This document shows, piece by piece, positions 37 to 24,931 of a DNA stretch of 41,485 bases. The DNA lies in the UHGV virus genome UHGV-0203597. The stretch is one strand, 5' to 3'. The notes beneath the pieces were generated by a model, which was not told the DNA's origin, ran no database searches, and was given only the letters and a program-made list of their open reading frames with translations. Numbering within the stretch: the first letter of the stretch is position 1; each line of letters starts with the position of its first letter. Position numbers and translations under genes: made by a program. Source of the stretch: a virus.

Positions 37-417
37 ATGAGAAAAGTATTTTTGATTTTTGGATTTATGCTTCTCGTTGGATGCCAGTCAGCTGCACAGT
101 TTGAAAGAAATATGCTTACGTGGCGCGGGCAGAGTATAGACGCAATGGTTCAGCAGTGGGGGTATCCTCAGGGAGAGCTTACATCTCCAGATGGAAACAG
201 AGTGTATGTTTACTCAAGCTCTGGTAGTTATAACGTACCACAAACCACAACGTATAATACTACGTCTAATCTAATTGGTAATACTATATATTCAAACACA
301 TACGCAACAACTGATGGCGGTTATACACTCCATTTCAGTTGCTCTGTTTACGTTGAGTTTGGTGCTGATAAGATTATTAAAAATGTTACATGGCGCGGTA
401 ATAATTGCGTTGCGTGA
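37..417 (+). CDS. Putative lipoprotein (moron; candidate superinfection-exclusion or lysogenic-conversion protein)
   Basis: ATG at 37 with AGGGG 6 nt upstream; signal peptide MRKVFLIFGFMLLVGC with lipobox LVGC; Ser/Thr/Tyr/Asn-rich mature part; AT-rich; no TTACC-N5-GGTAA site upstream; followed by hairpin terminator. Confidence 0.6.
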   Translation: MRKVFLIFGFMLLVGCQSAAQFERNMLTWRGQSIDAMVQQWGYPQGELTSPDGNRVYVYSSSGSYNVPQTTTYNTTSNLIGNTIYSNTYATTDGGYTLHFSCSVYVEFGADKIIKNVTWRGNNCVA

Positions 418-425
418 CATGTCAC
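414..425. repeat. 12-bp perfect palindrome GTGACATGTCAC, copy 1 of 3
   Basis: Overlaps the TGA stop of the lipoprotein gene; identical 12-mer at 22054-22065 and 24541-24552. Confidence 0.5.
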
Positions 426-426
426 A

Positions 427-450
427 GGCCGCTTTCGCGGCCTTGTTTTT
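427..450. terminator. Rho-independent terminator hairpin GGCCGC-TTTC-GCGGCC plus T-tract
   Basis: Perfect 6-bp GC stem, 4-nt loop, then TTGTTTTT on + strand; lies between convergent genes; same 18-mer repeated at 3783-3800. Confidence 0.6.
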
Positions 451-610
451 AACGAATGCCACCGCCACCCGGGCGGGAATCCGCAGAACGCCCACCGCAG
501 CGGGAGCCGTCAGCGGCAGTATCGCTGTCGTGCTGACAACGACCGGCAAAGGCCTGAGTTGAAGCTACCAGAGACAACAAAACGAACAGTGCAGCAAATG
601 CTTTTTTCAT
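449..610 (-). CDS. Small secreted peptide (53 aa, SPase I-type signal, two Cys in mature part)
   Basis: ATG at 610; MKKAFAALFVLLSLVASTQAFA then GRCQHDSDTAADGSRCGG...; last gene of the minus-strand operon after the YafO-like gene; weak RBS. Confidence 0.35.
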   Translation of the reverse strand: MKKAFAALFVLLSLVASTQAFAGRCQHDSDTAADGSRCGGRSADSRPGGGGIR

Positions 611-691
611 TGTGAAATTTCCATCTATAAACCACCTCAATGTGGCGTCAATGAGTGTAGCACTGACTTTTGTTTCGTCCATAAAAAACTA

Positions 692-1204
692 CTATGCAGG
701 CTTTTTGGATTTGTACGAATAATCCCACGGATAAACATTTCTACTAAGTGGAGCTGTATTCGTTCGTTCATGAAATAATTTTGTGAAATTCAATACGGAA
801 TCCATCCAAACTTTTGCGTTAGCTTTGGTGTGTGCGGGCGGGTCCCAATAAGCTAGTAAGGCTGCATCTCTTATTTCATTGACTGCATATATGAGATATG
901 CGTTACTGGTTGGTTTTGGCCTGTAATTTCCTTGTTCATCAATCAATCCATATGACCACTCATCCCAACACTGTTCAGTACATGAGTATGAATATGATGC
1001 ATATTCACCAATATTGACATGAACCTTTCTGAGATGGAAGCCTAATACTTCGTCTGGTCTTTCAAAAAGAGTATCTTTTCCCAGATCAGGATGATGACCA
1101 TGACGCCAGTGTTGTTTAAAAGCATCTTTTAGCGAAATCAGAAAGTCATCAGTTTTAAACTCACCAGTAGGTATAACCTTCCCGCTATACTCACTCAAAA
1201 ACAT
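692..1204 (-). CDS. YafO-family toxin-like protein (paralog 1)
   Basis: 170 aa; motifs HWRHGHHPDLGKDTLF, RKVHVNIG, YLIY, AALLAYWDPPAH recalled as matching E. coli YafO (RDGxLPDxFGRD, VAHIHL, LVYC, AWLLIAILKPEPH); 14-nt overlap with upstream gene. Confidence 0.5.
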   Translation of the reverse strand: MFLSEYSGKVIPTGEFKTDDFLISLKDAFKQHWRHGHHPDLGKDTLFERPDEVLGFHLRKVHVNIGEYASYSYSCTEQCWDEWSYGLIDEQGNYRPKPTSNAYLIYAVNEIRDAALLAYWDPPAHTKANAKVWMDSVLNFTKLFHERTNTAPLSRNVYPWDYSYKSKKPA

Positions 1205-1517
1205 CGAATTCCTCTTCCTTCATATGCGTTTCTAATGAGTTAAGCTGGCGGAAAGATATCTCTTTTGATTCTGCAGATGAGAGCTTTTTTATCCGCTTTA
1301 TATTCTTTGTGATAGGAATAGACATTGTATGCACATCAGCGGATGCTCTTGGCTTTGTGCTGATAAAAATATGGCGCAATGCCGCATTTTCACTATTGAA
1401 CGAGCCAATAGCTGATTTACGTGCTACAACCTTACCAGTAAAAATACGACTCTTGCTACGCTTTGCATGAGTTCCGCTTCTTACCGGACCTCTCATCACG
1501 AATCCAAGTTTTGTCAT
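1191..1517 (-). CDS. Small basic protein, putative cognate partner/antitoxin of YafO-like paralog 1 (no family recognised)
   Basis: 108 aa, Lys/Arg-rich with acidic C-terminus EEEFDVFE; GGAGA RBS; overlaps toxin-like gene. Confidence 0.4.
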   Translation of the reverse strand: MTKLGFVMRGPVRSGTHAKRSKSRIFTGKVVARKSAIGSFNSENAALRHIFISTKPRASADVHTMSIPITKNIKRIKKLSSAESKEISFRQLNSLETHMKEEEFDVFE

Positions 1518-1559
1518 CTTTAATCTCCGGTAAGTTACAGGTATAAAATAAAAACAGGT

Positions 1560-1574
1560 TTACCTTTAAGGTAA
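1560..1574. promoter_or_regulatory. TTACC-N5-GGTAA operator-like palindrome
   Basis: ttacctttaaggtaa, 43 nt upstream of the minus-strand ATG at 1517. Confidence 0.45.
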
Positions 1575-1640
1575 TATTACGCGAATCTACATCACATCGC
1601 CAATGATTATTTTAAAGGCACATCCCTGTGCCGCCGCTCG

Positions 1641-2336
1641 TCAGAAGAACCCTGCCTTGTCGTTGATGTACTCCGCGTGGGTCTGGATATCACGCAGGCA
1701 TTTGCTCACACCGACGATGTAGCAGAACATGGTGGTCAGCTCCGCCGCCGCGCCCGATACGTCGTGCCCGTCTTCCTGTAACTGGTTCAGCAGATTCATC
1801 AGCAGTGAGTTCTCCGTCAGGCCGAGAACACCAGACGGCGAGTGAATCAAACTGCGGTAGCCGGGCTTCAGTGGGGCGCTGTAGGTTTTGTTCTCTATCT
1901 TCATTGCCTGCATCACTGCTGATGCTGTGGCGTTGGCTACCTGGTCGGCAACCATCTTTATGCGTTCTTCCTGCGGGAGCGAGTTTTTAATGTAACTTCC
2001 GGTGCGGCGGATCTGAGGAAGAACCTCACCTGTAACCCATTTACGAAAGCGGTAGGGGATAGTGCCTGGTGTCACTGCGTCGCGGCAGCGGAGGATCAGT
2101 GTGTAGAGGCCTGACTCGGAGATGATGATCGATTCTTGCTCACCGCCAGGGGTGTCGGTTGAAGCGACGCCCTTCTCATCATCATCAAGTTTTCGAACAG
2201 CATCTCGATGGTTTGCTATGCCTATAGCCCGACAAACATCTGAAGCGATAAACCATGGCTCACCATTTATGACGATTACTCGTATATCGGCTTGGGATTC
2301 GAAAGAAAAAATGGACGTGCTTTTTGTAGCTGTCAT
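1641..2336 (-). CDS. BRO-N domain antirepressor-like protein with Ant-type C-terminal domain
   Basis: 231 aa; N-terminal motif PWFIASDVCRAIGI typical of BRO-N; C-terminal ~70 aa paralogous to the small protein at 3805-4062. Confidence 0.75.
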   Translation of the reverse strand: MTATKSTSIFSFESQADIRVIVINGEPWFIASDVCRAIGIANHRDAVRKLDDDEKGVASTDTPGGEQESIIISESGLYTLILRCRDAVTPGTIPYRFRKWVTGEVLPQIRRTGSYIKNSLPQEERIKMVADQVANATASAVMQAMKIENKTYSAPLKPGYRSLIHSPSGVLGLTENSLLMNLLNQLQEDGHDVSGAAAELTTMFCYIVGVSKCLRDIQTHAEYINDKAGFF

Positions 2337-2605
2337 AGTGGTTACCTTTTAGTCTGGTTAATCACCACTACCGACGCCAATCGGTTGGTGGTGAACTGTG
2401 CAGGGTTGGCGTAACCGGCTAAAAGGACCCGGCGCACCTTTCGGTGCCCCCACACAGCCCACCATAATACGAATGTGGCCGTGCTATACGCATAAAAAAA
2501 CCGCTTGCGCGGTGAATGCGCCTTTTAGTAATCCGGAACGCCAATCCCGGCACTGGATTTTGCCAGTGCCCGATTACTATGGCACAAGAGGAGTGCAATG
2601 TAAAT

Positions 2606-2620
2606 TTACCGCAAAGGTAA
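2606..2620. promoter_or_regulatory. TTACC-N5-GGTAA operator-like palindrome
   Basis: ttaccgcaaaggtaa in the 420-bp divergent intergenic region between the BRO-N gene and 2758-3285. Confidence 0.45.
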
Positions 2621-2730
2621 TGATAAATGCATAACTCACGTCATTTCAACCCTATGTGGTTTGATTGATCCCATTTCAGAAAATACCTGCCTATTTTTTT
2701 GCCAGTGAGCGTATACTTTCGATAGAATGT

Positions 2731-2745
2731 TTACCCTAAAGGTAG
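2731..2745. promoter_or_regulatory. TTACC-N5-GGTAg operator-like site (one mismatch)
   Basis: ttaccctaaaggtag, 13 nt upstream of the ATG at 2758. Confidence 0.35.
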
Positions 2746-2757
2746 TTGGGGGTGCCC

Positions 2758-3285
2758 ATGAACACGAAGAGAGTTACAGCGATGAGGCATAGACGCTTTG
2801 CCTTGAAAAGGCCTGAAAAAGAAAAAGAGCAAGAGATGGTGATTGAAGCAGCCGCTTATGCTGCAGCTATGGCAACTGCTGATGCGATTAGAAATTATGA
2901 AGAAGAGGATAATAAAAATTCCTATCGCATTTACTTATATGAGAGCCGTCACAGTGTTACAGACCATGAAGCATGCCTAAAAAAACAAGGGGAAGTATTC
3001 CACTGCAACCTTGCTGAGTACATTAGGAATGAAATGGAAAGGAATTTGGCTTTATCTCATTTTGGATACAAGAGTCAGGAAAGTGGTTTCGCTGGCTTTA
3101 AGGATAAAATTAACGAAAGGTGGCAACGTTTATACAAGCCACTTCAAGTTGATGAGAAAACTCATCAACTTGTTATGCATGAGGTCCCAAAGATGTCCGT
3201 AGAGAAATCCCATGCAATCTCGCGCAGGATGTTTGCACGCACTGCTGAAGACATGGCTCAGGAGCTCTACGACGATGCCGAATAA
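2758..3285 (+). CDS. Hypothetical charged helical protein, putative partner of YafO-like paralog 2
   Basis: 176 aa from ATG 2758 (alternative 2746); acidic C-terminus ELYDDAE; stop overlaps start of downstream toxin-like gene; unrelated to the 108-aa partner. Confidence 0.4.
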   Translation: MNTKRVTAMRHRRFALKRPEKEKEQEMVIEAAAYAAAMATADAIRNYEEEDNKNSYRIYLYESRHSVTDHEACLKKQGEVFHCNLAEYIRNEMERNLALSHFGYKSQESGFAGFKDKINERWQRLYKPLQVDEKTHQLVMHEVPKMSVEKSHAISRRMFARTAEDMAQELYDDAE

Positions 3286-3781
3286 ATTCCAGGGGTTGGT
3301 TCACCCTGGAATTTTTGGGAAGGACCCTGAGCTAATACCTATCAAAAACGCGTTCATAGATCACTGGCGCTACGGTCATCATAAGGATTTCGGAAAGGAC
3401 ACTCTGTTTCGAGATCCACCGAAAGAGATGCTGGAATATCACATACGCCACGTTCACTTAAACATCGGAAACTATACTGACAAGTTTGGTGAGAGCGGTA
3501 CGGAACAATGCTGGAAAAACTGGGCGTCTGGGAAGAAAGACAAGACCACTAACAAGCATAAAAAGATCCCAACCAGTGACGTGTATGTGATTTATCTGGT
3601 CACATCTGAACGCCATGCCTTCCTTCTGGATTATTGGGATGAACCAGCGCATAAGACAGTAGAAATTGACGAGCAGAAGCAAAAATTAGTTGTCGAGTGT
3701 GACAGAATTTTGCGGCTGAAAAAGTTAGAATCCATGCCGCGCGATGCAAGTTTGTGGGACCCAGAATTTTACGACTGTTAA
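3275..3781 (+). CDS. YafO-family toxin-like protein (paralog 2)
   Basis: 168 aa from MPNKF; motifs HWRYGHHKDFGKDTLF, RHVHLNIG, YVIY, AFLLDYWDEPAH align with paralog 1. Confidence 0.5.
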   Translation: MPNKFQGLVHPGIFGKDPELIPIKNAFIDHWRYGHHKDFGKDTLFRDPPKEMLEYHIRHVHLNIGNYTDKFGESGTEQCWKNWASGKKDKTTNKHKKIPTSDVYVIYLVTSERHAFLLDYWDEPAHKTVEIDEQKQKLVVECDRILRLKKLESMPRDASLWDPEFYDC

Positions 3782-3782
3782 T

Positions 3783-3808
3783 GGCCGCTTTCGCGGCCTT
3801 TTCTTTAT
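3783..3808. terminator. Bidirectional terminator hairpin GGCCGC-TTTC-GCGGCC plus T-tract (second copy)
   Basis: Same 18-mer as 427-444; between convergent genes ending at 3781 and 3805. Confidence 0.6.
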
Positions 3809-4062
3809 GTGGTTTGTTTTCGTAATTGTTCGGCACAATAGTCGAGATGTGTTTGCAGATCCTGCATAGACATCTGTGAGCTGGTGACGTAGTTAATCAG
3901 TGCAGTCAGTTCGGCAAGTGGGCCATCGACATTAAATCCATCCTTATCGAGATCCCGGAGTAATTTCATCAAGTGCGATCCCTCCACCAGTGACCTGACG
4001 CCTCCCGGCGTGTGAATCCTTTCGGTAAATCCGTCTTCCAGTGGATAGTGATACTGCTGCAT
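3805..4062 (-). CDS. Small Ant C-terminal-domain-like protein; candidate SOS-inducible antirepressor
   Basis: 85 aa from ATG 4062 (GGAGAAG RBS); paralogous to the C-terminus of the BRO-N protein; LexA box about 20 nt upstream. Confidence 0.5.
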   Translation of the reverse strand: MQQYHYPLEDGFTERIHTPGGVRSLVEGSHLMKLLRDLDKDGFNVDGPLAELTALINYVTSSQMSMQDLQTHLDYCAEQLRKQTT

Positions 4063-4081
4063 CTTATCTTCTCCATGCAAT

Positions 4082-4101
4082 AACTGTATATTTATACAGT
4101 A
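4082..4101. promoter_or_regulatory. LexA (SOS) box
   Basis: aaCTGTatatttatACAGta; minus-strand reading TACTGTATAAATATACAGTT matches consensus TACTGTATATATATACAGTA at 18/20. Confidence 0.6.
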
Positions 4102-4138
4102 GCAAATAATTTGTTTGCTATCCAGCACGTTTTGCAAA

Positions 4139-4153
4139 TTACCTGAAAGGTAA
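4139..4153. promoter_or_regulatory. TTACC-N5-GGTAA operator-like palindrome
   Basis: ttacctgaaaggtaa, identical to the site at 25529; between the LexA-box gene (minus) and the tailspike (plus). Confidence 0.45.
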
Positions 4154-4257
4154 TATCTATTCGTATTTACAGCCTTTCTATCCATATGTGGTTTTCCAGG
4201 TAATAGAATAACCAGATATGCGGCGCAACGGGTGCTGCGACTATCTGGAGATTTAAC

Positions 4258-6909
4258 ATGACGGTCTCAACCGAAGTTGACCACAACGAATACACCGGTA
4301 ACGGAGCTACGACATCATTTCCGTATACCTTCCGTATTTTCAAAAAATCCGACCTGGTTGTTCAGGTGTCTGACCTGAACGGGAACGTAACAGAATTGGT
4401 TCTGGATACTGACTACACAGTAACCAATGCTGGAGGATATAATGGCGGTAATGTAATTCTGTCGAAGGCGTTGGCTAACGGTTATCATATTTCTATATCA
4501 CGAGAGCTCCCGGTTACGCAGGATACTGATTTGCGTAATCAGGGTAAGTTCTTCGCTGAGGTACATGAAGACGCGTTCGATAAACTGACAATGCTTATTC
4601 AAAAGTGTTTTTCATGGATGAGGTTAGCACTTATAAAACCAAGCATTCTGGCTAACTATTATGATGCAAAAAATAATAAGATATCAAATCTAGCAAATGC
4701 CACTGACAGAAACGATGCTGTCAATAAAGGTTATGTTGATGATCTTTTTACTGGAGGTGTAACGCCTACACCTAACAGCGCTAAAAACGATATTTTTACA
4801 AATCACCAAAGAAAGATTGTAGCTACGATGCCGCTTCTTTTTCCTGAATATGATGCGATTATGGCTGCTAACCCGTCAGCAACTTATATGTATCCTCAAG
4901 GATTCTGCGTTAGCGAAGATTTGATATACATCACTTATCCATTTGAGCCTAAACAGACGAATAATGTCGTCGCAGTATTTAACATATCTGGTATTTATCA
5001 AGGTTATTTCTATGTTCAGGCTGGCGGCCCAGGCTTCGCTGCTGAAGGAATCGTGGTTACGTCAGACTATGGCCCCAAAAAAATGTTTGTTGGTCACACA
5101 AACGGAATACTGCGTGAATTTAATATGGAGGGGGCATTATACGGAAGCAATCTGCCTCTTGTACAAAACCATGATGTTGGATTATTCAACCAGTTCAGCT
5201 ACAGAAGAGGTATATGGCTCGTTGAGCAGAATGCGCCAGAAGTAGGACAGAAAATCACAAGAACTGTACTTGCAGTGTTCGACAGTGGTTTCAATCGCCT
5301 GTCAACTATAACGCTGCCGTTACATGATGTTGGGTATGTAACTAAAAGCACCTCACCTTATGCGCCTTATTTCAACAAGCGTCAGGGTATTGCGGTAGGT
5401 GATAACTACTTTGTCTGCGGCTATGGCGGCTTCATAGCTGATGGGGCAGGAAGCGCAGGATATAACGAATATCAGGGCAGCAAAGTTTTTAACCCTGACG
5501 GTACAAAGCGAACTGAATCAATGCTTCATCCTCAGGCCATGATGGATTTAATGAAAGCCGCAGGATTGAACGTCACTCGCATAGAAAATGAAGGCGTTTG
5601 TGTTTCTCAGGATGGAAAATCCATTTATTCACTTTACATTCATCAGGAAAGAACTGGCTCTGAACCTTACAATTCAGGTTTGGTTATTTTCGAAGATTTC
5701 TCCACTGATAAAGATGCTATCGATTTTACACCTGCATCCAGGCTTTACCGCGGATTTGATATCGATCACGCGAGCATTGGGGTATATCCCCGTAGTGCGA
5801 AGGGGATTGTTAACCCTGTAGATGGTACGTTGTTCACTAACATGACTGAAATTCTTCGCTATATGCAGGAGATGAGTCAGAAGGCATTTAATTTTTACAC
5901 AGGGACTGTCAGCATTGCTGATATATCTGGCGTGGCAATCCCTTCCAGCACATATGTTGAAATACTGAATGCGAATAATCAGACTTTTATAGTCAACTAT
6001 TATTCATCTGATAGTGGCATTAGTTATTTGGTTGCAACTAATCCTTCTGGTGACTTTGTATTTGTGCGCCAGCGACCGGCACAGTGGGCATCTAACTTAA
6101 CCATTCAGCAAAACGCAGATCCTGATACAAACCAATTAAACCGCATCACTGCATCATCATATGCCGGTGCAACTACAAACTCTCAGAAAATATTGGTCCT
6201 TGACCAGCAGGCTACAGCTAGCGCAAATAGCTTGGTATTGGGCGGTAGTTCTTCTGTGTTTAGGTCTGCCACCACGGTGGATATTGCATGCAACAGCGAC
6301 CCGACAGCATTGGGAGGAACCATACGCTGGCGGTTTTATGATACAGGTCTTCGCCCGTTTGCTGACAATACCTATAATTTTGGTCAGGCATCGTTTCGTA
6401 TTAAAGACGCCTACTTTGCAAATGCCCCAACCGTTTCATCAGATGCCACGCTGAAAACCAATCCCGAGGCAATATCAGATTTAAGTGAAATGCTTTCTTC
6501 TGATAGAGACAGCATTCTTGATGCCTGGGGCGATATTTCTGTTGTGGCGTATCGATGGCTCGACGCTATATCCATGAAGGGCGATGGTGCCAGATGGCAT
6601 TTTGGCGTCATGGCTCAGCAGGTAAGGGATGTATTCTTGGCGCACGGAATTGATGGAACCAGATTTGGCCTTCTTTGCTATGACGAGTGGGATGATATTT
6701 TTGAGCCGGTAATCGCGACTAAAGAGATTACCGATACGTCTGGTGAGTTGGTCACCGTCGAATATGACACCGGAGAACAGAGGCTGGTTAAAAAAGCGGG
6801 TAGTTCATGGGGTATACGGCCTGACCAGTGCGCTTGGCTTGAGGCTGCATATCAGCGCCGTCGATGCGATCGTATTGAAGAGCGACTCGAACTATTGGAA
6901 TCAAAATAA
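4258..6909 (+). CDS. Tailspike / tail fibre with T7 gp17-like N-terminal domain and C-terminal S74 intramolecular chaperone
   Basis: 883 aa; N-terminus resembles T7-type fibre anchor; C-terminus has RWHFGVMAQQV and GLLCYDEWDD recalled as S74 auto-processing chaperone motifs; central domain unassigned. Confidence 0.8.
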   Translation: MTVSTEVDHNEYTGNGATTSFPYTFRIFKKSDLVVQVSDLNGNVTELVLDTDYTVTNAGGYNGGNVILSKALANGYHISISRELPVTQDTDLRNQGKFFAEVHEDAFDKLTMLIQKCFSWMRLALIKPSILANYYDAKNNKISNLANATDRNDAVNKGYVDDLFTGGVTPTPNSAKNDIFTNHQRKIVATMPLLFPEYDAIMAANPSATYMYPQGFCVSEDLIYITYPFEPKQTNNVVAVFNISGIYQGYFYVQAGGPGFAAEGIVVTSDYGPKKMFVGHTNGILREFNMEGALYGSNLPLVQNHDVGLFNQFSYRRGIWLVEQNAPEVGQKITRTVLAVFDSGFNRLSTITLPLHDVGYVTKSTSPYAPYFNKRQGIAVGDNYFVCGYGGFIADGAGSAGYNEYQGSKVFNPDGTKRTESMLHPQAMMDLMKAAGLNVTRIENEGVCVSQDGKSIYSLYIHQERTGSEPYNSGLVIFEDFSTDKDAIDFTPASRLYRGFDIDHASIGVYPRSAKGIVNPVDGTLFTNMTEILRYMQEMSQKAFNFYTGTVSIADISGVAIPSSTYVEILNANNQTFIVNYYSSDSGISYLVATNPSGDFVFVRQRPAQWASNLTIQQNADPDTNQLNRITASSYAGATTNSQKILVLDQQATASANSLVLGGSSSVFRSATTVDIACNSDPTALGGTIRWRFYDTGLRPFADNTYNFGQASFRIKDAYFANAPTVSSDATLKTNPEAISDLSEMLSSDRDSILDAWGDISVVAYRWLDAISMKGDGARWHFGVMAQQVRDVFLAHGIDGTRFGLLCYDEWDDIFEPVIATKEITDTSGELVTVEYDTGEQRLVKKAGSSWGIRPDQCAWLEAAYQRRRCDRIEERLELLESK

Positions 6910-9113: not shown

Positions 9114-10370
9114 GTGCTTACCGATACAAAATTAAAAAACCTCAAGCCGCAGGACAAACTGTACAAGGTCTCCGATCGTGACGGGCTGTATGTAGCTGTG
9201 CTTACGTCAGGCACGGTCTCGTTTCGCTATGACTACCGTATCAACGGTCGCCGCGAAACACTGGTAATCGGGCAGTATGGGCGTGACGGTATCAGCCTGG
9301 CAGAAGCGCGAGAAGAACTGATTGCTGCAAAGAAGCTGCTTAAAGCAGGCCAGTCACCGGCTGCGGCTAAACGTGACGGTATTAAAAAGATTCGTGGTGC
9401 CGAGACGTTTGCGGTACATACCGACAGTTATATGAAACACGTCATCCTGGCTGACAGTACCCGCGCAATGAAGCAGGCGGTGATCGACCGTGACATACTT
9501 CCGGTTCTTGGCAACAAAATGATGGCTGAAATTACCACATCAATGGTTCGTGATTTGTGTGACCGGATTGTCGAACGCGGTGGTCGGGCAACAGCAGTAC
9601 AGGCCAGGGAGATCATCAGCAGCGTATACCGTCACGCCAATGACCGTGGTCATGGTTTGTTTAATCCTGCGGCTGACATTAAACCTTCGTCTATCGCCAT
9701 ATTTAAACCACGAGAGCGAACACTGACACCAGAAGAAATTGGTCTGTTCTTCCGCACGCTGGATGCCATTGGTGCTATGGGCACTATGAAAATGGCTTTA
9801 AAGCTGGTGCTTATCACCATGGTTCGTAAGGGAGAATTCACCAATGCAACGTGGGATGAAATAGATTTTAAAAAATGGACATGGACAATTCCTTCAGACC
9901 GCATGAAGGGAAGTCGGGCGCACGTTATTTACCTGCCTAAACAGGCACAGGATATATTAGTCGGGTTGCAGATGTGCGCTGGTGGAAGTGAATATCTGGT
10001 TCCTGGTCGTTACAATTTCCGGAAGCCATTATCTAATGCCGCGCTGAACTCTCTGATCGACAGAACGGTGAAAATAATAAATGAAGATGGTGAGCATATT
10101 CAGGATTTTACTGTACATGATATGCGCCGTACAGCCAGTACATTGTTGCATGAGGCTGGTTATCCTTCAGACTGGATTGAAAAGGCTCTGGCACACGAGC
10201 AGAAAGGTGTGCGCGCCGTATATAACAAAGCGGAATACGCCAGACAGCGCGCCTACATGTTGCAGCAGTGGGCCGATATGATTGATTCCTGGATTAACGG
10301 GGAGCATACGGATCTGATTCCGTTCTCCCCGTCGAAGTTTGAGAAGTGGATGGAAGACAGTAATAAATAA
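9114..10370 (+). CDS. int: Tyrosine integrase (P4-like, N-terminal arm-binding domain)
   Basis: 418 aa, GTG start; N-terminal LTDTKLKNLKP...DGLYV; C-terminal catalytic region with HDMRRTASTLL and terminal Tyr region. Confidence 0.9.
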   Translation: MLTDTKLKNLKPQDKLYKVSDRDGLYVAVLTSGTVSFRYDYRINGRRETLVIGQYGRDGISLAEAREELIAAKKLLKAGQSPAAAKRDGIKKIRGAETFAVHTDSYMKHVILADSTRAMKQAVIDRDILPVLGNKMMAEITTSMVRDLCDRIVERGGRATAVQAREIISSVYRHANDRGHGLFNPAADIKPSSIAIFKPRERTLTPEEIGLFFRTLDAIGAMGTMKMALKLVLITMVRKGEFTNATWDEIDFKKWTWTIPSDRMKGSRAHVIYLPKQAQDILVGLQMCAGGSEYLVPGRYNFRKPLSNAALNSLIDRTVKIINEDGEHIQDFTVHDMRRTASTLLHEAGYPSDWIEKALAHEQKGVRAVYNKAEYARQRAYMLQQWADMIDSWINGEHTDLIPFSPSKFEKWMEDSNK

Positions 10371-16063: not shown

Positions 16064-16078
16064 TAGCGGAGATTAATC

Positions 16079-16888
16079 ATGAGCAGACATGCAACAGATT
16101 GGGCTTGGGAGACAGATCCAGGTAGCTCATCATTAAAGCTCATACTGCTCTCGATGGCTGACAGAGCCGATGAATATAACCTCTGCTACCCCAGCATAGA
16201 ACGCCTCGTTAAAGACACTTGCCTGAATAAAAAAACCGTGCAGGCCGGGCTTATATCGCTCATGAAAATGGGGATTATTTCAGATACCGGAGAGAGAAAG
16301 GGAGCGACAAAAAGAGTGCGGGTTTTCTCTCTTAATATAACCAAAAACGGGAACATTAAAGGCAACCGGGAGGGGGGCAATGAACCCGAAAACGGGAATA
16401 TACCCGAAAACGGGAATATACCCAAAAACGGGAATATACCCAAAAACGGGATGTTGAATGATCCCAAAAACGGGATCCAGAACCAGTCATATAACCAGTC
16501 ATTTAACCAAGAGAGGGAGAGCAGGACAAAAAGCGGGGATTCTGTGCCTCATGACCCCGGAGCAAACAACGCCGTGATGAATAACTTTGTTCCTCCTGGT
16601 GGGCCAGGGCAATTAGGCAAATTTGTCATGCATGAACAATGGCAGCCATCAGATGACTTTCTTCGGAAAAGCTCATTGCAGGGGATCTACCTGGACAGTC
16701 TGCCAACGGCACAGGAACTTGCAGAGTTCAGAATTTACTGGATGGCTGAGGGTAAGGCATACCATCAGGCACAGTGGGAGCAGAAGCTGGCAAGGCGGCT
16801 GCAGATTAGCAGACAGAAGCAATCAACATTACCTGATAACAACGTTCCGCACTGGAACAGCCCTGAAGCATGGGAGGATTTCTTGTGA
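16079..16888 (+). CDS. Replication initiator (lambda O-like role) with N-terminal HTH domain and internal iterons
   Basis: 269 aa; N-terminal winged-HTH-like segment; internal ENGNIP peptide repeats from DNA iterons; translationally coupled to P-like gene. Confidence 0.6.
   Translation: MSRHATDWAWETDPGSSSLKLILLSMADRADEYNLCYPSIERLVKDTCLNKKTVQAGLISLMKMGIISDTGERKGATKRVRVFSLNITKNGNIKGNREGGNEPENGNIPENGNIPKNGNIPKNGMLNDPKNGIQNQSYNQSFNQERESRTKSGDSVPHDPGANNAVMNNFVPPGGPGQLGKFVMHEQWQPSDDFLRKSSLQGIYLDSLPTAQELAEFRIYWMAEGKAYHQAQWEQKLARRLQISRQKQSTLPDNNVPHWNSPEAWEDFL
16385..16474 (+). repeat. Iterons: five copies of CCC(G/A)AAAACGGG, four at 18-bp spacing (putative origin)
   Basis: Copies at 16385, 16403, 16421, 16439, 16463; each is an internal palindrome; followed by aaccagtcat x2. 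Confidence 0.6.
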
Positions 16889-17784: not shown

Positions 17785-17787
17785 ATC

Positions 17788-18746: not shown

Positions 18747-18807
18747 ATCGACGATCTTTTTAGTTATCAATGTAATCAATAAGTTATGTGGATAAGCGAG
18801 GGTAAAG

Positions 18808-19245
18808 ATGGAAAGTAATATCAAAGGGTTAGTTTCCGCCGGGCATGAGATGGCTTCGGAACTGAAAGCAGAATGTGGTGCCGTTGATATGCGCAGTGTG
18901 GCAAAGCTGATCAGCGATTTGGCAACGCAGCTGGAAGTGCAACTGGTGCGTGCTAATGCGCTGGCTGCGGAGAATGCGCTGGCTCGTAAAGCAGTTCAGG
19001 CATTTTGCGATGTTGTTGGCGACAGCACCGAGGTTATCTGCGAGGAGATTGGGCGAGATGGCGTTCTGGTTATTTTGGAGGCAATGAAGGCAACAGGAAA
19101 TATGCCAGCCACCGATGCTTTCCTGTCTGAAGTGCGGGCGCAGGGGGTAGAGATGATGCGCGAACATCCATCAATCAAACTTTGTTCTTTGACGCACATA
19201 TGTGATGAGTTAGCCGCCCAGCTTCGCAAAGGAGGCAACCAGTGA
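18808..19245 (+). CDS. Hypothetical protein
   Basis: 145 aa; complete ORF with RBS; possible Ea22-like (low confidence). Confidence 0.4.
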   Translation: MESNIKGLVSAGHEMASELKAECGAVDMRSVAKLISDLATQLEVQLVRANALAAENALARKAVQAFCDVVGDSTEVICEEIGRDGVLVILEAMKATGNMPATDAFLSEVRAQGVEMMREHPSIKLCSLTHICDELAAQLRKGGNQ

Positions 19246-19466
19246 GCGGAAAAAGAATGACTAACAGAGAGCTTGTCGATGCCGCGATTAAGCTTGCTGG
19301 TGATTTTTATTCAATGATGGGGTACACGCATCGCCCAGGCTTCAAATATTGGGAGTCTCCTCACCCGCAAGAGCAACTGGTATTTCAAATGGCCTGCCGT
19401 GCTTTTGAGGTTATTCGCGGTTCTGATGTGATGGACGCCGTTGCCGACTTGGAGGATGAAGAGTGA
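19242..19466 (+). CDS. Hypothetical protein
   Basis: 74 aa; translationally coupled to neighbours. Confidence 0.4.
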   Translation: MSGKRMTNRELVDAAIKLAGDFYSMMGYTHRPGFKYWESPHPQEQLVFQMACRAFEVIRGSDVMDAVADLEDEE

Positions 19467-19822
19467 GCGAGATTAATTATCAGGAAGGGCATGAAAAGGC
19501 AGGGCAGGCAAAACCAGTGGCATGGCGATATCGCTACGTGAAAAAAGGCGTTACAGACTTTCAGGGGAAGCAGTGGGTTGGTGACTGGAAATATGTACCG
19601 ACAAAAGAGGATTGCAACGACAGACCGAACTATGAAATTCAGGCGTTATTCACTGCCCCGCCTGTGCCACTGACACCAGAAGGATTGATTAAAGCAGTGC
19701 GTTTCTATGAACAGGTAAAGCGTGAGAATCCGCCAGTCGAAACCGGAGCATGGAAAGACGCTGTTGACTGGGTGCTCAAAGAGGCTTGCCAGTCTGTAAA
19801 CATTGGCATCAAAGGAGAGTGA
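19463..19822 (+). CDS. Hypothetical protein
   Basis: 119 aa; coupled. Confidence 0.4.
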   Translation: MSEINYQEGHEKAGQAKPVAWRYRYVKKGVTDFQGKQWVGDWKYVPTKEDCNDRPNYEIQALFTAPPVPLTPEGLIKAVRFYEQVKRENPPVETGAWKDAVDWVLKEACQSVNIGIKGE

Positions 19823-19825
19823 GAA

Positions 19826-20316
19826 TGCAAATTTCACCGGTTACTCTTCGTGTTGCGAAGGCGTTTATATCCAGACATCACCGACACAATAACCCCCCGG
19901 TGGGGCATAAATTCAGCATTGGTCTGAGAAATGATGCCGGAGAATTGATAGGTGTGGCGACAGCCGGTCGACCTGTTGCACGACATTTGGATGATGGATT
20001 AACGCTTGAAGTAAATCGCACATGTACCACAGGAGAACGCAACGCTAACAGCGCGCTTTATGGTGCTGTCTGGCGGGCAGCAAAAGCTATGGGTTATCAA
20101 CGTTGTATTACGTACACCCGGGCAGATGAATCAGGAGCATCTCTTCGCGCAGCTGGTTTTGTTCGTGTGAAAGAGCTTCCTCCAAGAAAAAGCTGGGCGG
20201 AATCAAGCGTCGCCCTGCGGAGTAAACGCGATCCAGTCGGAAACGGTGGTGTTCCTCGTGTGCTCTGGGAAATCAGGATAATGAGTACCACTGGTATTCG
20301 CATCAAAGGAGAGTGA
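19826..20316 (+). CDS. Hypothetical protein, possibly acetyltransferase-like fold
   Basis: 163 aa from MQISPV; AAAGGAG RBS; pattern LIGVATAGRP...TYTRADESGASLRAAGF reminiscent of an acyl-CoA N-acyltransferase core (uncertain). Confidence 0.4.
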
Positions 20317-20317
20317 T

Positions 20318-20581
20318 ATGGCAACTTTGACAAAAAAAGAACGGGCATGGTTGAACGAATTACAGGACGTTCTTGATCGCTGCCCATCACCGAAAAAAAT
20401 TGGTTTTTACACCATTGGCGATAAAAGCATTTACCTGTATGACCTGCGCCGCATGGATGAAATCATGGAGGCTCTTGATAATCGTTCGTCGATGGATTGG
20501 TGTGTTGCTGTCCATGATATGAATGCCGGATTTGATGAAAGGATTTTGTTCCCCTCATCAGTTGAAAGCACTGCGGGTTAA
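20318..20581 (+). CDS. Hypothetical protein
   Basis: 87 aa. Confidence 0.4.
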   Translation: MATLTKKERAWLNELQDVLDRCPSPKKIGFYTIGDKSIYLYDLRRMDEIMEALDNRSSMDWCVAVHDMNAGFDERILFPSSVESTAG

Positions 20582-20591
20582 GGAGTAACAC

Positions 20592-21374
20592 ATGACCACT
20601 ATTACCAAAGAACGTATTGAATTGTTCATTAAAAATCCGCTTGAAAACGGGCTTACCCGTGGTGAACAAATGGAACTGGCACGGATTGCGCTGGCATCAC
20701 TGGAAGCAGAACCAGTTGCTTATATTTTCAAACATCCGGCCGGGAAATTATTCTGGGCTTTAACGGATGAAAGCAATAAAGAGCAACCGGACGTTATTCC
20801 TGTTTATGCTGACTCACCTGCGCCGGTTGTGCCGGATGAAATAGACGTAAACGATGTACCAAGGGCGGTGACATATTTCAAGACACACAGAGATTGTTAC
20901 GCAGATGGCTGGAACGCCTGCCGCGCCGCCATGCTTCAGTCCGGAAACTTTCGGGAAAATAAGAATTCGTCAACCAATAATTTTCGGGAAATCGCGGAAA
21001 CGTCAACCAACTATCCGGTAATTCCGGATGGTTTATCCACGGTATGCGCTGAGGCTTATCAGGTTGTAGGAGTTATGGCAGATGCGCTTGGTGTATTCGG
21101 TGATGCAGCAGTACAGAAAGTTCTGGATAACCTGTCACAGCAAAAACTTGTTCACAGAGATGTGCTGCCGTTCTCGCTTCCGGTAACTCCGGATGGTTGG
21201 ATAAGCTGTAGTGATCGAATGCCGAACGACGCGCAGTGGTGCGTAGTGAACACAGAATACGGGTATTACGTGCAATGCTGGTCTGAAGGTCAAGGGTGGC
21301 TTGGTGATGATATCAGCATCCCTAAATGCGATGTAATCAATTGGATGCCTCTACCAGAACCGCCGCAGGGGTGA
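20592..21374 (+). CDS. DUF551-like C-terminal domain protein
   Basis: 260 aa; C-terminal WISCSDRMP...WCVVNTEYGYYVQCW...WMPLPEPP; internal direct repeat 20949-21010. Confidence 0.5.
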   Translation: MTTITKERIELFIKNPLENGLTRGEQMELARIALASLEAEPVAYIFKHPAGKLFWALTDESNKEQPDVIPVYADSPAPVVPDEIDVNDVPRAVTYFKTHRDCYADGWNACRAAMLQSGNFRENKNSSTNNFREIAETSTNYPVIPDGLSTVCAEAYQVVGVMADALGVFGDAAVQKVLDNLSQQKLVHRDVLPFSLPVTPDGWISCSDRMPNDAQWCVVNTEYGYYVQCWSEGQGWLGDDISIPKCDVINWMPLPEPPQG

Positions 21375-21440
21375 AATGATGCTTGGCCTGAAGTATTTTA
21401 TGTAATTGGTATTGCTATATTTTTATCTGGGGATAAACGA

Positions 21441-21683
21441 ATGTTCTCTCTGATTCAACGTGGTCAGATATACACCGATAGCGCTGGCTATCCAGTAAAA
21501 ATCATTCGTAGTACTGATCACTCAGTATTCTTCAAGAGGATGGATGGCTATCCTGGAAGAGTGTGCATCAGAAAATTCAATAATTTATTCGAACACATTG
21601 ATCACAGAGAATATCACCAGATCCTGGCTGAAACAGAACAGGAGAACCATCTGAAAAAATTACGTGCTATGCAAAGGAGATAA
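21441..21683 (+). CDS. Hypothetical protein
   Basis: 80 aa. Confidence 0.4.
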   Translation: MFSLIQRGQIYTDSAGYPVKIIRSTDHSVFFKRMDGYPGRVCIRKFNNLFEHIDHREYHQILAETEQENHLKKLRAMQRR

Positions 21684-21718
21684 ACCGGTAAATGTGTTCG
21701 CGATAAAGGTAAATATTG

Positions 21719-22057
21719 ATGGCTAAATCAGCAGCAGAGCGCAAAGCCGCTCAGAGAGCCAGACAAGCTGCATCTGGTGTGCGTAAGCTGGAAATTGTGC
21801 TTGATGCTCAGGAAATTGAAATGCTGGAGCGTAACTGTGCCACGCGTCGCCCCGGGCGTGCGCCTTACGAATTTGGTGAGTATATAGCGTTACTGATCCG
21901 CCAGGATGATGCACGCGTGCGCGGGCGTATAAAATCGATCAGCAGAAAACGTTGCGGTAAGTGCGGCGAGAGAGTTCCAGTTAATTCATGCCCGTGTAAT
22001 GGTGACTCGCAATGCTGGGTGACCAAAGGCTGGCATGAAACGAAATTAATAGTGTGA
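21719..22057 (+). CDS. Putative regulator with basic N-terminus and C-terminal Cys cluster (candidate late-gene regulator)
   Basis: 112 aa; CGKCGERVPVNSCPCNGDSQC; close upstream of the late operon; stop lies in GTGACATGTCAC. Confidence 0.4.
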   Translation: MAKSAAERKAAQRARQAASGVRKLEIVLDAQEIEMLERNCATRRPGRAPYEFGEYIALLIRQDDARVRGRIKSISRKRCGKCGERVPVNSCPCNGDSQCWVTKGWHETKLIV

Positions 22058-22065
22058 CATGTCAC
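22054..22065. repeat. 12-bp palindrome GTGACATGTCAC, copy 2 of 3
   Basis: Overlaps stop of 21719-22057 and the start region of the next ORF. Confidence 0.5.
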
Positions 22066-22074
22066 GAAGGTGTT

Positions 22075-22287
22075 ATGCCAAAAATACGCTACGACCTTGA
22101 AGATATGAGAGATAACTCAGCAAATTTTCCGAAAGAGGTTAAATTTCTCATGAATAAGTATGGTTGCGCCAGGAGGGATATAGTTATCGACAGTCAGCAC
22201 CCTTGCGGCGAGGATGTAATTTTCATTCGCGGTAAATGGGAATGGTATCTTGACGAGAGTTTTTACGATGAATTTGATGGACTTTGA
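22075..22287 (+). CDS. Hypothetical protein
   Basis: 70 aa from MPKIRYDL (alternative GTG 22054); GAAGGTG RBS. Confidence 0.35.
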   Translation: MPKIRYDLEDMRDNSANFPKEVKFLMNKYGCARRDIVIDSQHPCGEDVIFIRGKWEWYLDESFYDEFDGL

Positions 22288-22292
22288 ATACT

Positions 22293-22319
22293 GCCGCCAA
22301 CTATGGCGGCTTTATTTTG
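22293..22319 (+). terminator. Terminator preceding the terminase operon
   Basis: gccgcc-aactat-ggcggc followed by tttattttg. Confidence 0.6.
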
Positions 22320-22329
22320 CATGGTACTA

Positions 22330-22344
22330 TTACCACAACGGTAA
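22330..22344. promoter_or_regulatory. TTACC-N5-GGTAA operator-like palindrome upstream of terminase
   Basis: ttaccacaacggtaa 18 nt before terS ATG; second imperfect copy at 22348-22362. Confidence 0.45.
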
Positions 22345-22361
22345 CTATTACCACGGTGGTT

Positions 22362-22994
22362 ATGATGCCTGCTGAACCTAAAACCTATAAACGTAAATCA
22401 ACGCAATTTAAGCCACTAACAGCAATGCAGGAGGCTTATTGCCAGTCATACATCAAAACGCCTGAAAACCAGACTCAGGCAGCGATTAACGCAGGATTCT
22501 CCCCAAATACAGCGGCAGTTAAAGCAAGTGTCATGATGCGCGATGAACGCATTCAAAAACGGATTGCCGAGTTGATGGAGGAGCGCAACAAACGAATGCG
22601 CGTCAGTGCTGATTACGTTCTCATGCGCCTGGTGGAGATCGACCAGATGGACGTGCTGGATATACTGAACGATGACGGCGGGATGAAGCCGATCGCTGAA
22701 TGGCCGAAGGTCTGGCGTACCTCTCTCAGTGCTATGGATATCGCTACCATCAAGACAACCCAGGCTTCCCTGCAAAAAGAGAATGGCGAGGCGGATCTCT
22801 CTGTTGAGGATGTCGAGCATATCCTGAAGAAGGTGAAATGGCCTGACAAGGTGAAGAACCTTGAGCTGATTGGTAAGCATGTTGATGTCAACGCATTCAA
22901 AGAACGTCTGGATGTTAATGTGAATGTGACAATTGCTGATCGCATAGCAGCAGCCAGGAAGCGACTCAAAGAACGTCAGGATGGTAATCAGTGA
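22362..22994 (+). CDS. Terminase small subunit
   Basis: 210 aa from MMPAEP; position before large terminase with 4-nt overlap; N-terminal DNA-binding-like region. Confidence 0.6.
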   Translation: MMPAEPKTYKRKSTQFKPLTAMQEAYCQSYIKTPENQTQAAINAGFSPNTAAVKASVMMRDERIQKRIAELMEERNKRMRVSADYVLMRLVEIDQMDVLDILNDDGGMKPIAEWPKVWRTSLSAMDIATIKTTQASLQKENGEADLSVEDVEHILKKVKWPDKVKNLELIGKHVDVNAFKERLDVNVNVTIADRIAAARKRLKERQDGNQ

Positions 22995-24466
22995 CAGATA
23001 CAGCGTTATCTCCTGAAGAGCAGTTAATCGAGGATATTGCAGGGTTCACTCACGATCCGCTTGGCTATGCCCTCTATGCGTTCCCGTGGGGGGAAGATGG
23101 GACTGAACTGGCACATGCCACCGGTCCACGTCAGTGGCAGGCTGATGCGTTCCGAGAGATACGTGATCACCTGCAGAATCCAGAGACGCGCTATCAGCCG
23201 CTTATGCTGGCACGCGCTTCGGGTCACGGTATTGGTAAATCCGCATTCATCTCAATGCTGATCAACTGGGGCATGTCCACTTGCGAGGATTGTAAGGTTG
23301 TGGTGACCGCCAACACCGACAACCAGCTACGAACGAAGACCTGGCCGGAAATTATCAAGTGGTCGAACCTTGCTATCACGAAAGACTGGTTTACCTGTAC
23401 CGCTACCGCGATGTACAGCAATGATCCTGGACACGACAAGCGGTGGCGAGCTGACGCAATACCCTGGTCTGAGCACAACACTGAGGCATTCGCCGGACTA
23501 CACAACGAGCGCAAACGCATCATCGTGGTATTCGATGAAGCGTCGAACATTGCGGATCTGGTGTGGGAAGTTGCCGAGGGTGCGCTAACGGACGAAGACA
23601 CTGAGATTATCTGGGTGGCGTTCGGAAACCCGACGCGTAATACCGGACGTTTCCGCGAATGTTTCCGCAAATATAAACACCGCTGGAAAACTGCGCAGAT
23701 TGACAGCCGGACGGTGGAAGGCACCAACAAACAGCAGTTGCAGAAATGGGTTGATGACTACGGGGAAGACAGCGACTTCGTTAAAATCCGTGTGCGCGGC
23801 ATATTCCCGGATGCATCTGAATTGCAGTTTATCCCTACCGGACTTACTGACGAGGCAATGAAACGGGTGGTCACCGCTGCGCAGGTTGCACATGCTCCGG
23901 TGATAATCGGCGTTGACCCGGCATACTCAGGCGTTGATGACGCTGTGATATACCTGCGGCAGGGGCTGCACAGTAAGGTGCTGTGGACTGGCAACAAGAC
24001 CACTGACGATCTGATTATGGCGAAGCGTATCGCTGACTTTGAAGACCAGTACCAGGCTGACGCAGTGTTCATCGACTTCGGTTACGGAACTGGTCTGAAG
24101 TCAATCGGTGACGGCTGGGGTCGTACATGGCAACTTGTTCCGTTCGGTGGCGCGTCTACTGACCCGCAGATGCTCAACAAGCGTGGGGAGATGTTCAACT
24201 CATGTAAGACATGGCTGAGGCTGGGCGGCATGCTGGATGACCAGGAAACTGCAGACGACCTGTCGGCGGCAGAGTACAAAGTTCGAGTGGACGGTAAAAT
24301 CGTTATCGAACCGAAGGAAGATATCAAAGAGCGACTTGGGCGTTCGCCGGGTAAAGGCGATGCGCTGCTGCTGACGTTTGCTTTCCCGGTGTCGAAGCGC
24401 CTGCGACTTCCCTGGCAGCAGAACCAGCAAGGCAAGGCCATCACAGATTATGACCCGTATGCTTAA
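22991..24466 (+). CDS. Terminase large subunit
   Basis: 491 aa; Walker A-like ASGHGIGKS; nuclease-domain acidic motifs (VIIGVDPA, AVFIDFGYG). Confidence 0.85.
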   Translation: MTDTALSPEEQLIEDIAGFTHDPLGYALYAFPWGEDGTELAHATGPRQWQADAFREIRDHLQNPETRYQPLMLARASGHGIGKSAFISMLINWGMSTCEDCKVVVTANTDNQLRTKTWPEIIKWSNLAITKDWFTCTATAMYSNDPGHDKRWRADAIPWSEHNTEAFAGLHNERKRIIVVFDEASNIADLVWEVAEGALTDEDTEIIWVAFGNPTRNTGRFRECFRKYKHRWKTAQIDSRTVEGTNKQQLQKWVDDYGEDSDFVKIRVRGIFPDASELQFIPTGLTDEAMKRVVTAAQVAHAPVIIGVDPAYSGVDDAVIYLRQGLHSKVLWTGNKTTDDLIMAKRIADFEDQYQADAVFIDFGYGTGLKSIGDGWGRTWQLVPFGGASTDPQMLNKRGEMFNSCKTWLRLGGMLDDQETADDLSAAEYKVRVDGKIVIEPKEDIKERLGRSPGKGDALLLTFAFPVSKRLRLPWQQNQQGKAITDYDPYA

Positions 24467-24523
24467 TCCGCTGGTGGGGATAATGTCGTTGATATCCTCT
24501 GATGAGGATAAAACAAAGCCAGC

Positions 24524-24931
24524 TCATCGGCTGGCTGTTTGTGACATGTCACTGTGTTGTTGCTCGCTTAACTTCTGCTTCAGCAAGTAACCTTCAAGCA
24601 TCCAGATTTTGTTTACAGCATTCTGCCGGGCAATCTTCCGACCAATTTCTGCATCAAAATTTTCCGGACTTGCACAGGCACTCTCTCCGGTGACAGTGAA
24701 GCCATTCTTCAGCACCAGTACGCAGAAAGTGAGAAGGTGCAGAGCATCAGGGGTGGCTTCGACATAAGGCTCCGGATTATAAATAAGGTCATCTTCTTTA
24801 GCCTGGTGATCACCCTGCGCAGCAGTGAAAAAATGCTCACTGCAAATGAGGCCTTCAATTTTCTCAGGTGTTACACGCGGTGCCGTTTTGCCTTTCTCAA
24901 CGATTTCTTTTTCGATTTGCTGGTCGTTCAT
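24524..24931 (-). CDS. Hypothetical protein, antisense to the late operon, downstream of tRNA
   Basis: 135 aa; AAGGTGAG RBS; same strand as tRNA; family not recognised. Confidence 0.5.
   Translation of the reverse strand: MNDQQIEKEIVEKGKTAPRVTPEKIEGLICSEHFFTAAQGDHQAKEDDLIYNPEPYVEATPDALHLLTFCVLVLKNGFTVTGESACASPENFDAEIGRKIARQNAVNKIWMLEGYLLKQKLSEQQHSDMSQTASR
24541..24552. repeat. 12-bp palindrome GTGACATGTCAC, copy 3 of 3
   Basis: Inside the last codons of the minus-strand gene; adjacent to hairpin gccagc-tcatcg-gctggc. Confidence 0.5.

Follow-up and report, generated by a model that had tools for sequence, protein, structure and literature searches.

A 12-bp palindrome at gene ends of a phiV10/epsilon15-like phage as a candidate binding site of the PHROG 536 protein

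Here, we examined a perfect 12-bp palindrome, GTGACATGTCAC, that is present three times in the viral genome UHGV-0203597, a stretch of 41,485 nucleotides that we refer to as the window. Its copies (sites 1 to 3) lie at or near the 3' ends of genes in the company of terminators (Table 1), and site 2 sits on the stop codon of a gene for a 112-residue protein of PHROG 536. With DNA that is ~97% identical to phiV10-type Escherichia coli phages across the packaging and head genes and ~78 to 80% identical to Salmonella phage epsilon15, the window is a temperate phiV10/epsilon15-like podophage of the genus Uetakevirus. The comparisons described below suggest, with a probability that we put at roughly 0.6, that GTGACATGTCAC is the binding site of the PHROG 536 protein. 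This module of protein and site is previously unreported: the 12-mer is unmarked in the richly annotated records of epsilon15, N15, and phiKO2, which do mark operators, IHF sites, and partition sites, and a full-text literature search gave no relevant mention of the 12-mer, of its N15 variant, or of MatP-like or matS-like phage systems.

Position of the palindrome in the window and in close relatives

An exact search recovered all three copies that an earlier, sequence-only reading of this DNA had listed, at the positions given there, and the 12-mer was absent from all 100 dinucleotide-preserving shuffles of the window (0 copies expected compared to 3 observed). Allowing up to two mismatches added a single window match, at 27583, which is at chance level. 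GTGAC/GTCAC dyads with any spacer from 0 to 8 other than 2 were absent from the window, and the half-site GTGAC alone was not enriched (34 copies compared to 40 expected). The same reading had placed every copy at a stop codon; this holds for sites 1 and 2, where the TGA lies inside the palindrome, whereas site 3 differs, lying 75 nt past the terL stop (24464-24466) and within the last 11 codons of the minus-strand open reading frame (ORF) 24524-24931. This ORF reads through site 3 because its stop was lost: just right of the site the window has TTG in place of the usual TTA, so that the Phage_gp49_66 gene gains 11 codons and extends into the terminator hairpin, whereas its counterpart in relatives (phiV10 p03) stops 4 nt short of the palindrome.

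Table 1. Sites, terminators, and adjoining genes in the window
Feature	Coordinates	Strand	Description
Site 1	414..425	.	GTGACATGTCAC; the TGA (415-417) that ends the upstream cassette ORF lies within it
Site 2	22054..22065	.	GTGACATGTCAC; covers the last codon and the TGA (22055-22057) of ORF 21716-22057
Site 3	24541..24552	.	GTGACATGTCAC; flanked by the terL terminator and by a variable slot that holds a minus-strand cassette gene
Candidate binding-protein gene	21719..22057	+	112 aa; phiV10 p55, epsilon15 gp49, N15 gp46; PHROG 536 "transcriptional regulator"
Intrinsic terminator after site 1	426..451	+	Hairpin 426-443 plus T-run, directly adjoining the site; a terminator is annotated at the homologous place of phiV10
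Intrinsic terminator ending the early-right operon	22293..22310	+	228 nt downstream of site 2; epsilon15 annotates a terminator at 39646-39672
Terminator hairpin between terL and site 3	24517..24536	.	T-runs on both strands; 4 nt from site 3
Cassette ORF ending in site 1	1..417	+	PHROG 3716; lipoprotein-like signal LLVGC
Small ORF, PHROG 1541	22075..22287	+	Between site 2 and its terminator; presence varies among close relatives, only a remnant in phiV10
Terminase large subunit gene (terL)	22991..24466	+	End of its transcription unit marked by the hairpin and site 3
Cassette gene, Pfam Phage_gp49_66	24524..24931	-	Transcribed toward site 3 and the terminator; runs through the palindrome

Hairpins had been noted beside two of the copies; terminator hairpins adjoin sites 1 and 3. 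Hairpins near the sites fit the definition of an intrinsic terminator, that is, a GC-rich hairpin followed by a T-run, whereas the palindrome itself does not. In epsilon15-type genomes the sites occupy the 3' ends of three transcription units, namely (i) the early-right operon, whose last gene is that of the PHROG 536 protein itself, (ii) the terS-terL unit, where there is also a moron slot, and (iii) the structural operon, and the order on the transcribed strand is gene end, site, terminator. At site 2, the distance to the terminator is only ~45 nt in relatives that lack the small inserted ORF. Across diverse loci, a terminator-like hairpin lies within 60 nt of 36.5% of the sites compared to 19.8% of random positions, an association that is real and modest.

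The three sites also coincide with the edges of exchangeable DNA. Homology of the window to its relatives as found by megablast begins at 412/413, at site 1, and nine unrelated clusters of left flanks, each ending exactly at the palindrome, were seen in 116 IMG/VR copies of the palindrome with its terminator (the viral collection was scanned with a 19-mer and with the 14-mer TGTGACATGTCACA). Other genes found at this place in relatives are phiV10 p21 and TL-2011b Ant. On the right of site 3, at least seven unrelated minus-strand cassettes start directly after the palindrome, and a small ORF is present or absent immediately right of site 2, so that at all three sites a variable cassette abuts the palindrome side of a conserved unit of palindrome and terminator. 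The suggestion that the motif marks a cassette boundary is thus borne out as a description, with unrelated flanks abutting the palindrome at sites 1 and 3. The cassette ORF 1-417 itself (PHROG 3716, function unknown) is probably a moron expressed from the prophage. We also observed the string GGTGTTA(T) directly after site 3 (24553-24560) and 3 nt after site 2 (22066-22076); after site 3 it precedes several unrelated cassettes in relatives as well and may extend the conserved joint.

An exact-match search in related phages, which the sequence-only reading had proposed as a check, found the 12-mer kept at homologous places. Epsilon15 carries the same 12-mer three times, after terL (2142), at the end of gp18 (19517), and at the end of gp49; TL-2011b has two copies, with the homologue of site 1 at 32282; and phiV10 has two exact copies, including the site 1 homologue at 19493, and a third, at site 2, with one mismatch. 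This third copy straddles the ends of the phiV10 record (1 and 39104), reading GTGA followed by CATGTTAC across the join. The IMG/VR contig L083 ends at the same base at which the phiV10 record is opened, inside site 2, and L027 carries GTGAAATGTCAC at the site 2 place (10336), so individual sites can decay without loss of the gene. Among 80 phiV10-like IMG/VR loci, 77 have site 2 and 54 have site 3; of the loci that lack site 3, some show single-base variants there or differ in the region that follows terL. A one-mismatch variant, GTGACATGGCAC, recurs in Yersinia phage YenM_42.18 at 11669 (27 nt upstream of its exact site), in phiV10 at 5306, and in TL-2011b at 16873; in the latter two phages it lies inside a p08-like gene, where the window has two mismatches (27583). 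These copies may be weaker secondary sites or chance occurrences.

Half-site signature and coupling to one gene across unrelated phages

The palindrome would be one instance of a more general signature, GTGAC-NN-GTCAC, with inverted 5-bp half-sites and an unspecified 2-bp center. We counted all inverted 5-mer dyads in 1.07 Mb of diverse phages carrying the PHROG 536 gene, where GTGAC-N2-GTCAC had 104 matches and ranked first among 1,024 half-sites, compared to 17 matches for the next half-site and a mean of 1.1. In the same DNA, spacers of 0, 1, 3, 4, 5, and 6 gave 0, 1, 1, 0, 0, and 0 matches, respectively. The half-sites are invariant, whereas the center dinucleotide varies (AT, TG/CA, AC, GC, CC, GT, and AG), even at homologous sites of related Vibrio phages, and within ZF40-like coding sequence the 12-mer forms an island of exact identity between diverged flanks. 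Invariant half-sites, a fixed spacer, and a free center are the pattern that would be expected of symmetric recognition by a dimer. The only other dominant dyad in this set was the epsilon15-type repressor operator TTACC-N5-GGTAA. Phage lambda (L138), the sole gene-less genome examined, has neither the PHROG 536 gene nor the 12-bp motif; it carries two GTGAC-N1-GTCAC dyads, at 9747 and 19010, for a rough expectation of ~0.05, and none with spacer 2.

Homologues of the 112-residue protein were found by tblastn in phages with entirely different virions, and the motif recurs there with the gene. The Pectobacterium myovirus ZF40 contains GTGACATGTCAC three times, one copy lying 3 nt past the gp22 stop; the linear-plasmid prophages N15 and phiKO2 each contain GTGACTGGTCAC three times at homologous positions, one of them across the stop of gp46 and Gp45, respectively; Vibrio phage K233 has three GTGAC-(AC/GC)-GTCAC sites; and a P2-like Yersinia phage (YenM) has one exact copy of GTGACATGTCAC. 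In a phylogenetic profile of 265 window ORFs, only ORF 21716-22057 has homologues in all of ZF40, N15, phiKO2, K233, and the Yersinia phage, every other ORF being common to at most two of these five. Moreover, at least one GTGAC-NN-GTCAC is present within 20 kb or less in every one of 48 diverse IMG/VR loci encoding homologues (51 to 100% identical to the query, for which either ZF40 gp22 or the Vibrio K233 homologue was used). In 36 of them, the homologue's stop has a site at -1 to +7 nt, followed by unrelated downstream flanks. Since many of these loci are related to one another, such counts are not independent events, and the independent evidence is the recurrence across lineages, that is, the epsilon15, ZF40, N15, and Vibrio groups plus the Yersinia phage. 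Starting from the site instead, 32 of the 118 IMG/VR stretches with TGTGACATGTCACA encode the protein within the ~10 kb fetched. Another 43 can be aligned to gene-carrying phages across 5% or more of the stretch, and for 33 of these the aligned share is at least 30%.

Outside the epsilon15 group, the placement of the sites differs from phage to phage. In ZF40, two exact sites (5125 and 7622) bracket the cI/cro/cII immunity region, and the same is seen in ZF40-like phages (L090-L097), where the two sites are 2.0 to 3.2 kb apart and one ZF40-like site falls within the 3' part of a cII-like gene; the geometry of this bracketing recalls lambda OL-OR looping. In N15 and phiKO2, one site lies ahead of a terminator and one inside repA.

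The candidate binding protein and known systems of similar design

Clustered at 50% identity, the PHROG 536-type family is small, with 243 clusters among 1.84 billion representatives, and it is known only from Enterobacterales, Vibrio, and Aeromonas phages and prophages. Searches of Pfam, NCBIfam, and PDB sequences with the 112-residue protein returned nothing above threshold, and Foldseek comparison to PDB and BFVD gave nothing informative. An AlphaFold2 model built from a 30-sequence alignment reached a predicted local distance difference test (pLDDT) score of 78.8, with values above 86 at residues 20 to 70 (an earlier model with pLDDT 62 was set aside). In this model, a basic N-terminal helix that holds the nearly invariant Arg8 and Arg13 is followed by an extended segment, a helix, a conserved RRPGRxPY loop, a long helix, a four-cysteine (C4) ribbon, and a terminal helix. 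Sub-threshold Pfam matches are to RHH_1, RHH_5, RHH_10, TacA1, RepB-RCR_reg, and NikA-like, the last two of which we take to be related to the ribbon-helix-helix (RHH) fold, and hhalign placed the protein in register with beta-alpha1 of CopG and with alpha1-alpha2 of MatP. For the C-terminal half, an 88-sequence profile pointed to YbiI/TraR, that is, DksA/TraR zinc fingers (hmmsearch against PDB, E value 0.02; hhalign probability for TraR, 77%); Pfam zf-dskA_traR gave no match for 10 members scanned at E values of 5 or less, nor among the 25 of 60 families listed for an 88-member scan. The protein is predicted, on marginal fold evidence, to combine an RHH-like N-terminal domain with a C4 zinc ribbon.

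This predicted architecture invites comparison with several known systems. RHH regulators, such as Arc and Mnt of P22, CopG, ParG/omega, and the antitoxins of toxin-antitoxin systems, would share with the phage protein its predicted beta-alpha-alpha order and its presumed dimeric binding to a short dyad, and several RHH families gave weak matches. Their operators lie at promoters and are often tandem repeats, whereas each phage site is a single dyad that ends a gene or an operon or falls within an ORF; the phage protein is also unlike these regulators in its predicted fused zinc ribbon and in a beta-strand that is not conserved even though the site is. TraR/DksA-type proteins, which are RNA polymerase secondary-channel factors common in phages and plasmids, resemble the predicted phage protein in having a long helix, a CxxCG..(L/I)P finger, and a terminal helix. 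Yet their cysteines are spaced CxxC-x17-CxxC compared to CxxC-x8-C-x7-C here, and the phage protein has ~46 residues ahead of the long helix, where TraR and DksA have a free acidic tip. TraR and DksA are not known to bind DNA.

The closest parallel in the site itself is matS, the 13-bp sequence GTGAC[AG]N[TC]GTCAC recognized by MatP (PMC3603311). MatP organizes the Ter macrodomain in enterobacteria and vibrios. The two systems resemble each other in their identical half-sites, a putative RHH-like core, and few dispersed sites, a resemblance that concerns what the phage system may work like. With a 12-mer and a 2-bp center here compared to a 13-mer and a 3-bp center there, the phage motif is 1 bp shorter and is therefore not matS and would be missed by a matS scan. 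In MatP a four-helix bundle precedes the RHH domain, whereas the phage protein has only ~20 residues before its predicted strand and no room for such a bundle, and a predicted C4 zinc ribbon takes the place of the C-terminal coiled coil of MatP. Alignment to E. coli MatP gave an hhalign probability of 1% or less, and the phage protein has no MatP Pfam domain. The phage system further differs in being phage encoded and in having one site on the gene's own stop. Site length, domain content, and sequence similarity all speak against membership in the MatP family.

With regard to the junctions, the linker or boundary sequences of lambdoid phages are likewise short conserved sequences exactly at the joints of exchangeable modules; unlike them, the joint here is one defined dyad that occurs in phages without other similarity and is tied to one gene. 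Integron attC sites are imperfect palindromes of 60 to 140 bp used by a linked integron integrase, and the present motif is a 12-bp perfect dyad for which no recombinase is common to the motif-carrying phages. Neither do the sites look like pac, cos, or homing-endonuclease sites, as those of N15, phiKO2, and ZF40 lie in early regions and no nuclease domain adjoins them.

Proposed function and competing explanations

The comparisons above directly show that the motif is conserved, that it is coupled to one gene, that its half-sites and spacer are specific, and that it sits at junctions. Three things that we infer, namely binding itself, the fold, and an effect on transcription, would fit together as follows. 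The most likely reader of the signature would be a dimer of the protein encoded at 21719-22057. Because one site lies on or just past the gene's own stop, gene and site would form a portable module, with up to two more sites elsewhere in the genome. The bound protein would influence transcription at operon boundaries: it could serve as a roadblock or insulator, or it could control read-through of the terminator next to the site. It may also bridge sites. Since the units of site and terminator are invariant and their neighbors variable, they could double as crossover points for the exchange of cassettes between phages, as a side effect. We place much less confidence in the transcription-boundary mechanism, as opposed to DNA bridging or classical regulation, than in binding itself. 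If binding is confirmed, a conserved family of "hypothetical proteins" would gain a function and a DNA target, including in the model phages epsilon15, phiV10, and N15 and more widely in temperate phages of Escherichia, Salmonella, Klebsiella, Yersinia, Pectobacterium, Vibrio, and Aeromonas, and the exchange of moron cassettes at exactly the same nucleotide would be explained by a concrete sequence.

A bolder version of this idea, which we regard as unlikely, is that PHROG 536 proteins are hybrids of MatP-like and TraR-like folds acting on "phage matS" sites that are 1 bp shorter and invisible to host MatP. Such proteins would hand their zinc finger to RNA polymerase at operon ends, or would bridge the three sites and thereby fold the phage chromosome or exclude the host SMC complex MukBEF from it. 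If true, they would represent an undescribed class of site-specific organizer of phage genomes or of transcription boundaries. With the half-sites of matS at a spacing 1 bp shorter, a phage MatP-like system orthogonal to that of the host becomes testable.

Several findings weigh against binding by the PHROG 536 protein as proposed here. Aeromonas 85AhydR10PP has a homologue without a site, retaining only a relic with two mismatches, aTGACATGgCAC, at the stop. In the opposite direction, the remaining 43 of the 118 TGTGACATGTCACA stretches have no gene in the stretch and are unrelated to gene-carrying phages; they may be chance hits, belong to further phage groups in which the site is used, or reflect another system. 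Several of these unrelated stretches (among L260, L261, L274, L278, L343, L367, and others) share the context TTGACTGT-site-CCTCTGCAG, and two, L302 and L357, have extra TGTGACA repeats beside the site. Within the protein, the beta-strand, which usually sets the specificity of RHH proteins, varies across the family while the half-site stays constant, so that the reading of GTGAC would fall to the invariant Arg8 and Arg13. Because some ZF40 and N15 sites lie within coding regions, adjacency to a terminator is not universal, and any influence on termination may be confined to the epsilon15 group. Finally, the decay of individual sites in some close relatives means that no single site is essential.

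Among the alternatives, the sharpness of the junctions, which fall exactly at the palindrome at sites 1 and 3 (as in the megablast start at 412/413), would be expected if short boundary sequences were kept as joints for homologous or site-specific recombination with no dedicated binding protein, and the phage does encode RecT and an exonuclease, which might act on short homologies. This explanation appears quite improbable to us, as it leaves unexplained the recurrence of these half-sites at the stop of a single gene family in otherwise unrelated phages, the strict 2-bp spacing with its free center, and the exact 12-mer within diverged ZF40-like coding sequence, and no recombinase co-occurs with the motif in the five-phage profile of window ORFs. 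A role as a junction is in any case compatible with a site that is also functional. It is very unlikely that a host factor, MatP with its matS-like sites or another protein, binds the sites in place of the phage protein. The hosts of gene-carrying phages are all enterobacteria, Vibrio, or Aeromonas, lineages that have MatP. The half-sites are identical to those of matS, and K233 (L007) has, beside its three 12-bp sites, a 13-bp sequence, GTGACACCGTCAC, at 19491-19503 that fits the matS consensus. However, the phage spacer is 2 bp and not 3 bp, with a spacer of 3 giving 1 match compared to 104, and a host factor explains neither why the motif tracks one phage gene nor why it sits on that gene's stop codon. 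In addition, there is no canonical matS in the window, and 500 Escherichia and Salmonella prophages are likewise without one (PMC3603311).

An RNA-level element, that is, a structure at the transcript's 3' end that aids termination or serves as a processing signal, might be considered because all three window copies are transcribed just ahead of terminators. We judge it highly improbable: the 12-mer RNA folds at only -1.2 kcal/mol (z score, -0.03) and is paired in another way at each of the three sites, the N15 sites, which are asymmetric, are found in either orientation with respect to transcription, and many sites in other phages lie inside ORFs without a nearby terminator. Least probable of all is that a nuclease, a terminase (pac), or a homing enzyme recognizes or cuts the palindrome. 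Site 2 does lie ~230 nt upstream of terS, and a K233 site ~19 nt upstream of terS, and both the phiV10 record and one IMG/VR contig begin or end exactly inside site 2; we take the start of the phiV10 record to be an annotation choice that follows the last gene's stop codon. On the other hand, no HNH or other nuclease domain was detected in the ORFs beside the sites or in the other ORFs tested, in N15, a cos phage, and in phiKO2 the sites lie well away from the annotated cos and telomere features, those of ZF40 flank the immunity region among early genes, and three dispersed copies are unexpected of a pac site. Of the roles put forward in the sequence-only reading, that of a target for an HNH nuclease, terminase, or recombinase accordingly finds no support, with no recombinase traveling with the motif, whereas that of a regulator binding site is the best supported, given that in unrelated phages the motif occurs and varies together with a single small protein predicted to bind DNA.

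Three further assignments of the palindrome were rejected. It is not a repressor operator, as the epsilon15 operators are ATTACC-N5-GGTAAT instead. As a promoter -35 element (GTGACA), it has a well-spaced -10 element only at the Salmonella-type site 2, this -10 is not conserved, and a promoter scan was empty at the sites. A methyltransferase or restriction target does not fit either, since the center varies and CATG is not conserved. The SlmA site, which we take to be GTGAGTACTCAC, agrees with the 12-mer in just the outer 4+4 bases.

The epsilon15 operators are the other over-represented dyad in these genomes, a dispersed one that also occurs ahead of late operons. They lie at 5' ends and promoters and are annotated, whereas the 12-mer lies at 3' ends, is unannotated, and has another sequence and spacing; the 12-mer would add to the map of epsilon15-like genomes a second regulatory dyad, at operon 3' ends rather than at promoters. 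The window contains ten TTACC-N5-GGTAA dyads, at 1560, 2606, 4139, 14609, 14671, 15383, 17708, 17770, 22330, and 25529. Some of these are found a short way ahead of terS (22330), of the portal unit (25529), and of the tail-fiber gene (4139), an arrangement suggestive of direct control of the late operons by the prophage repressor, as is annotated in epsilon15.

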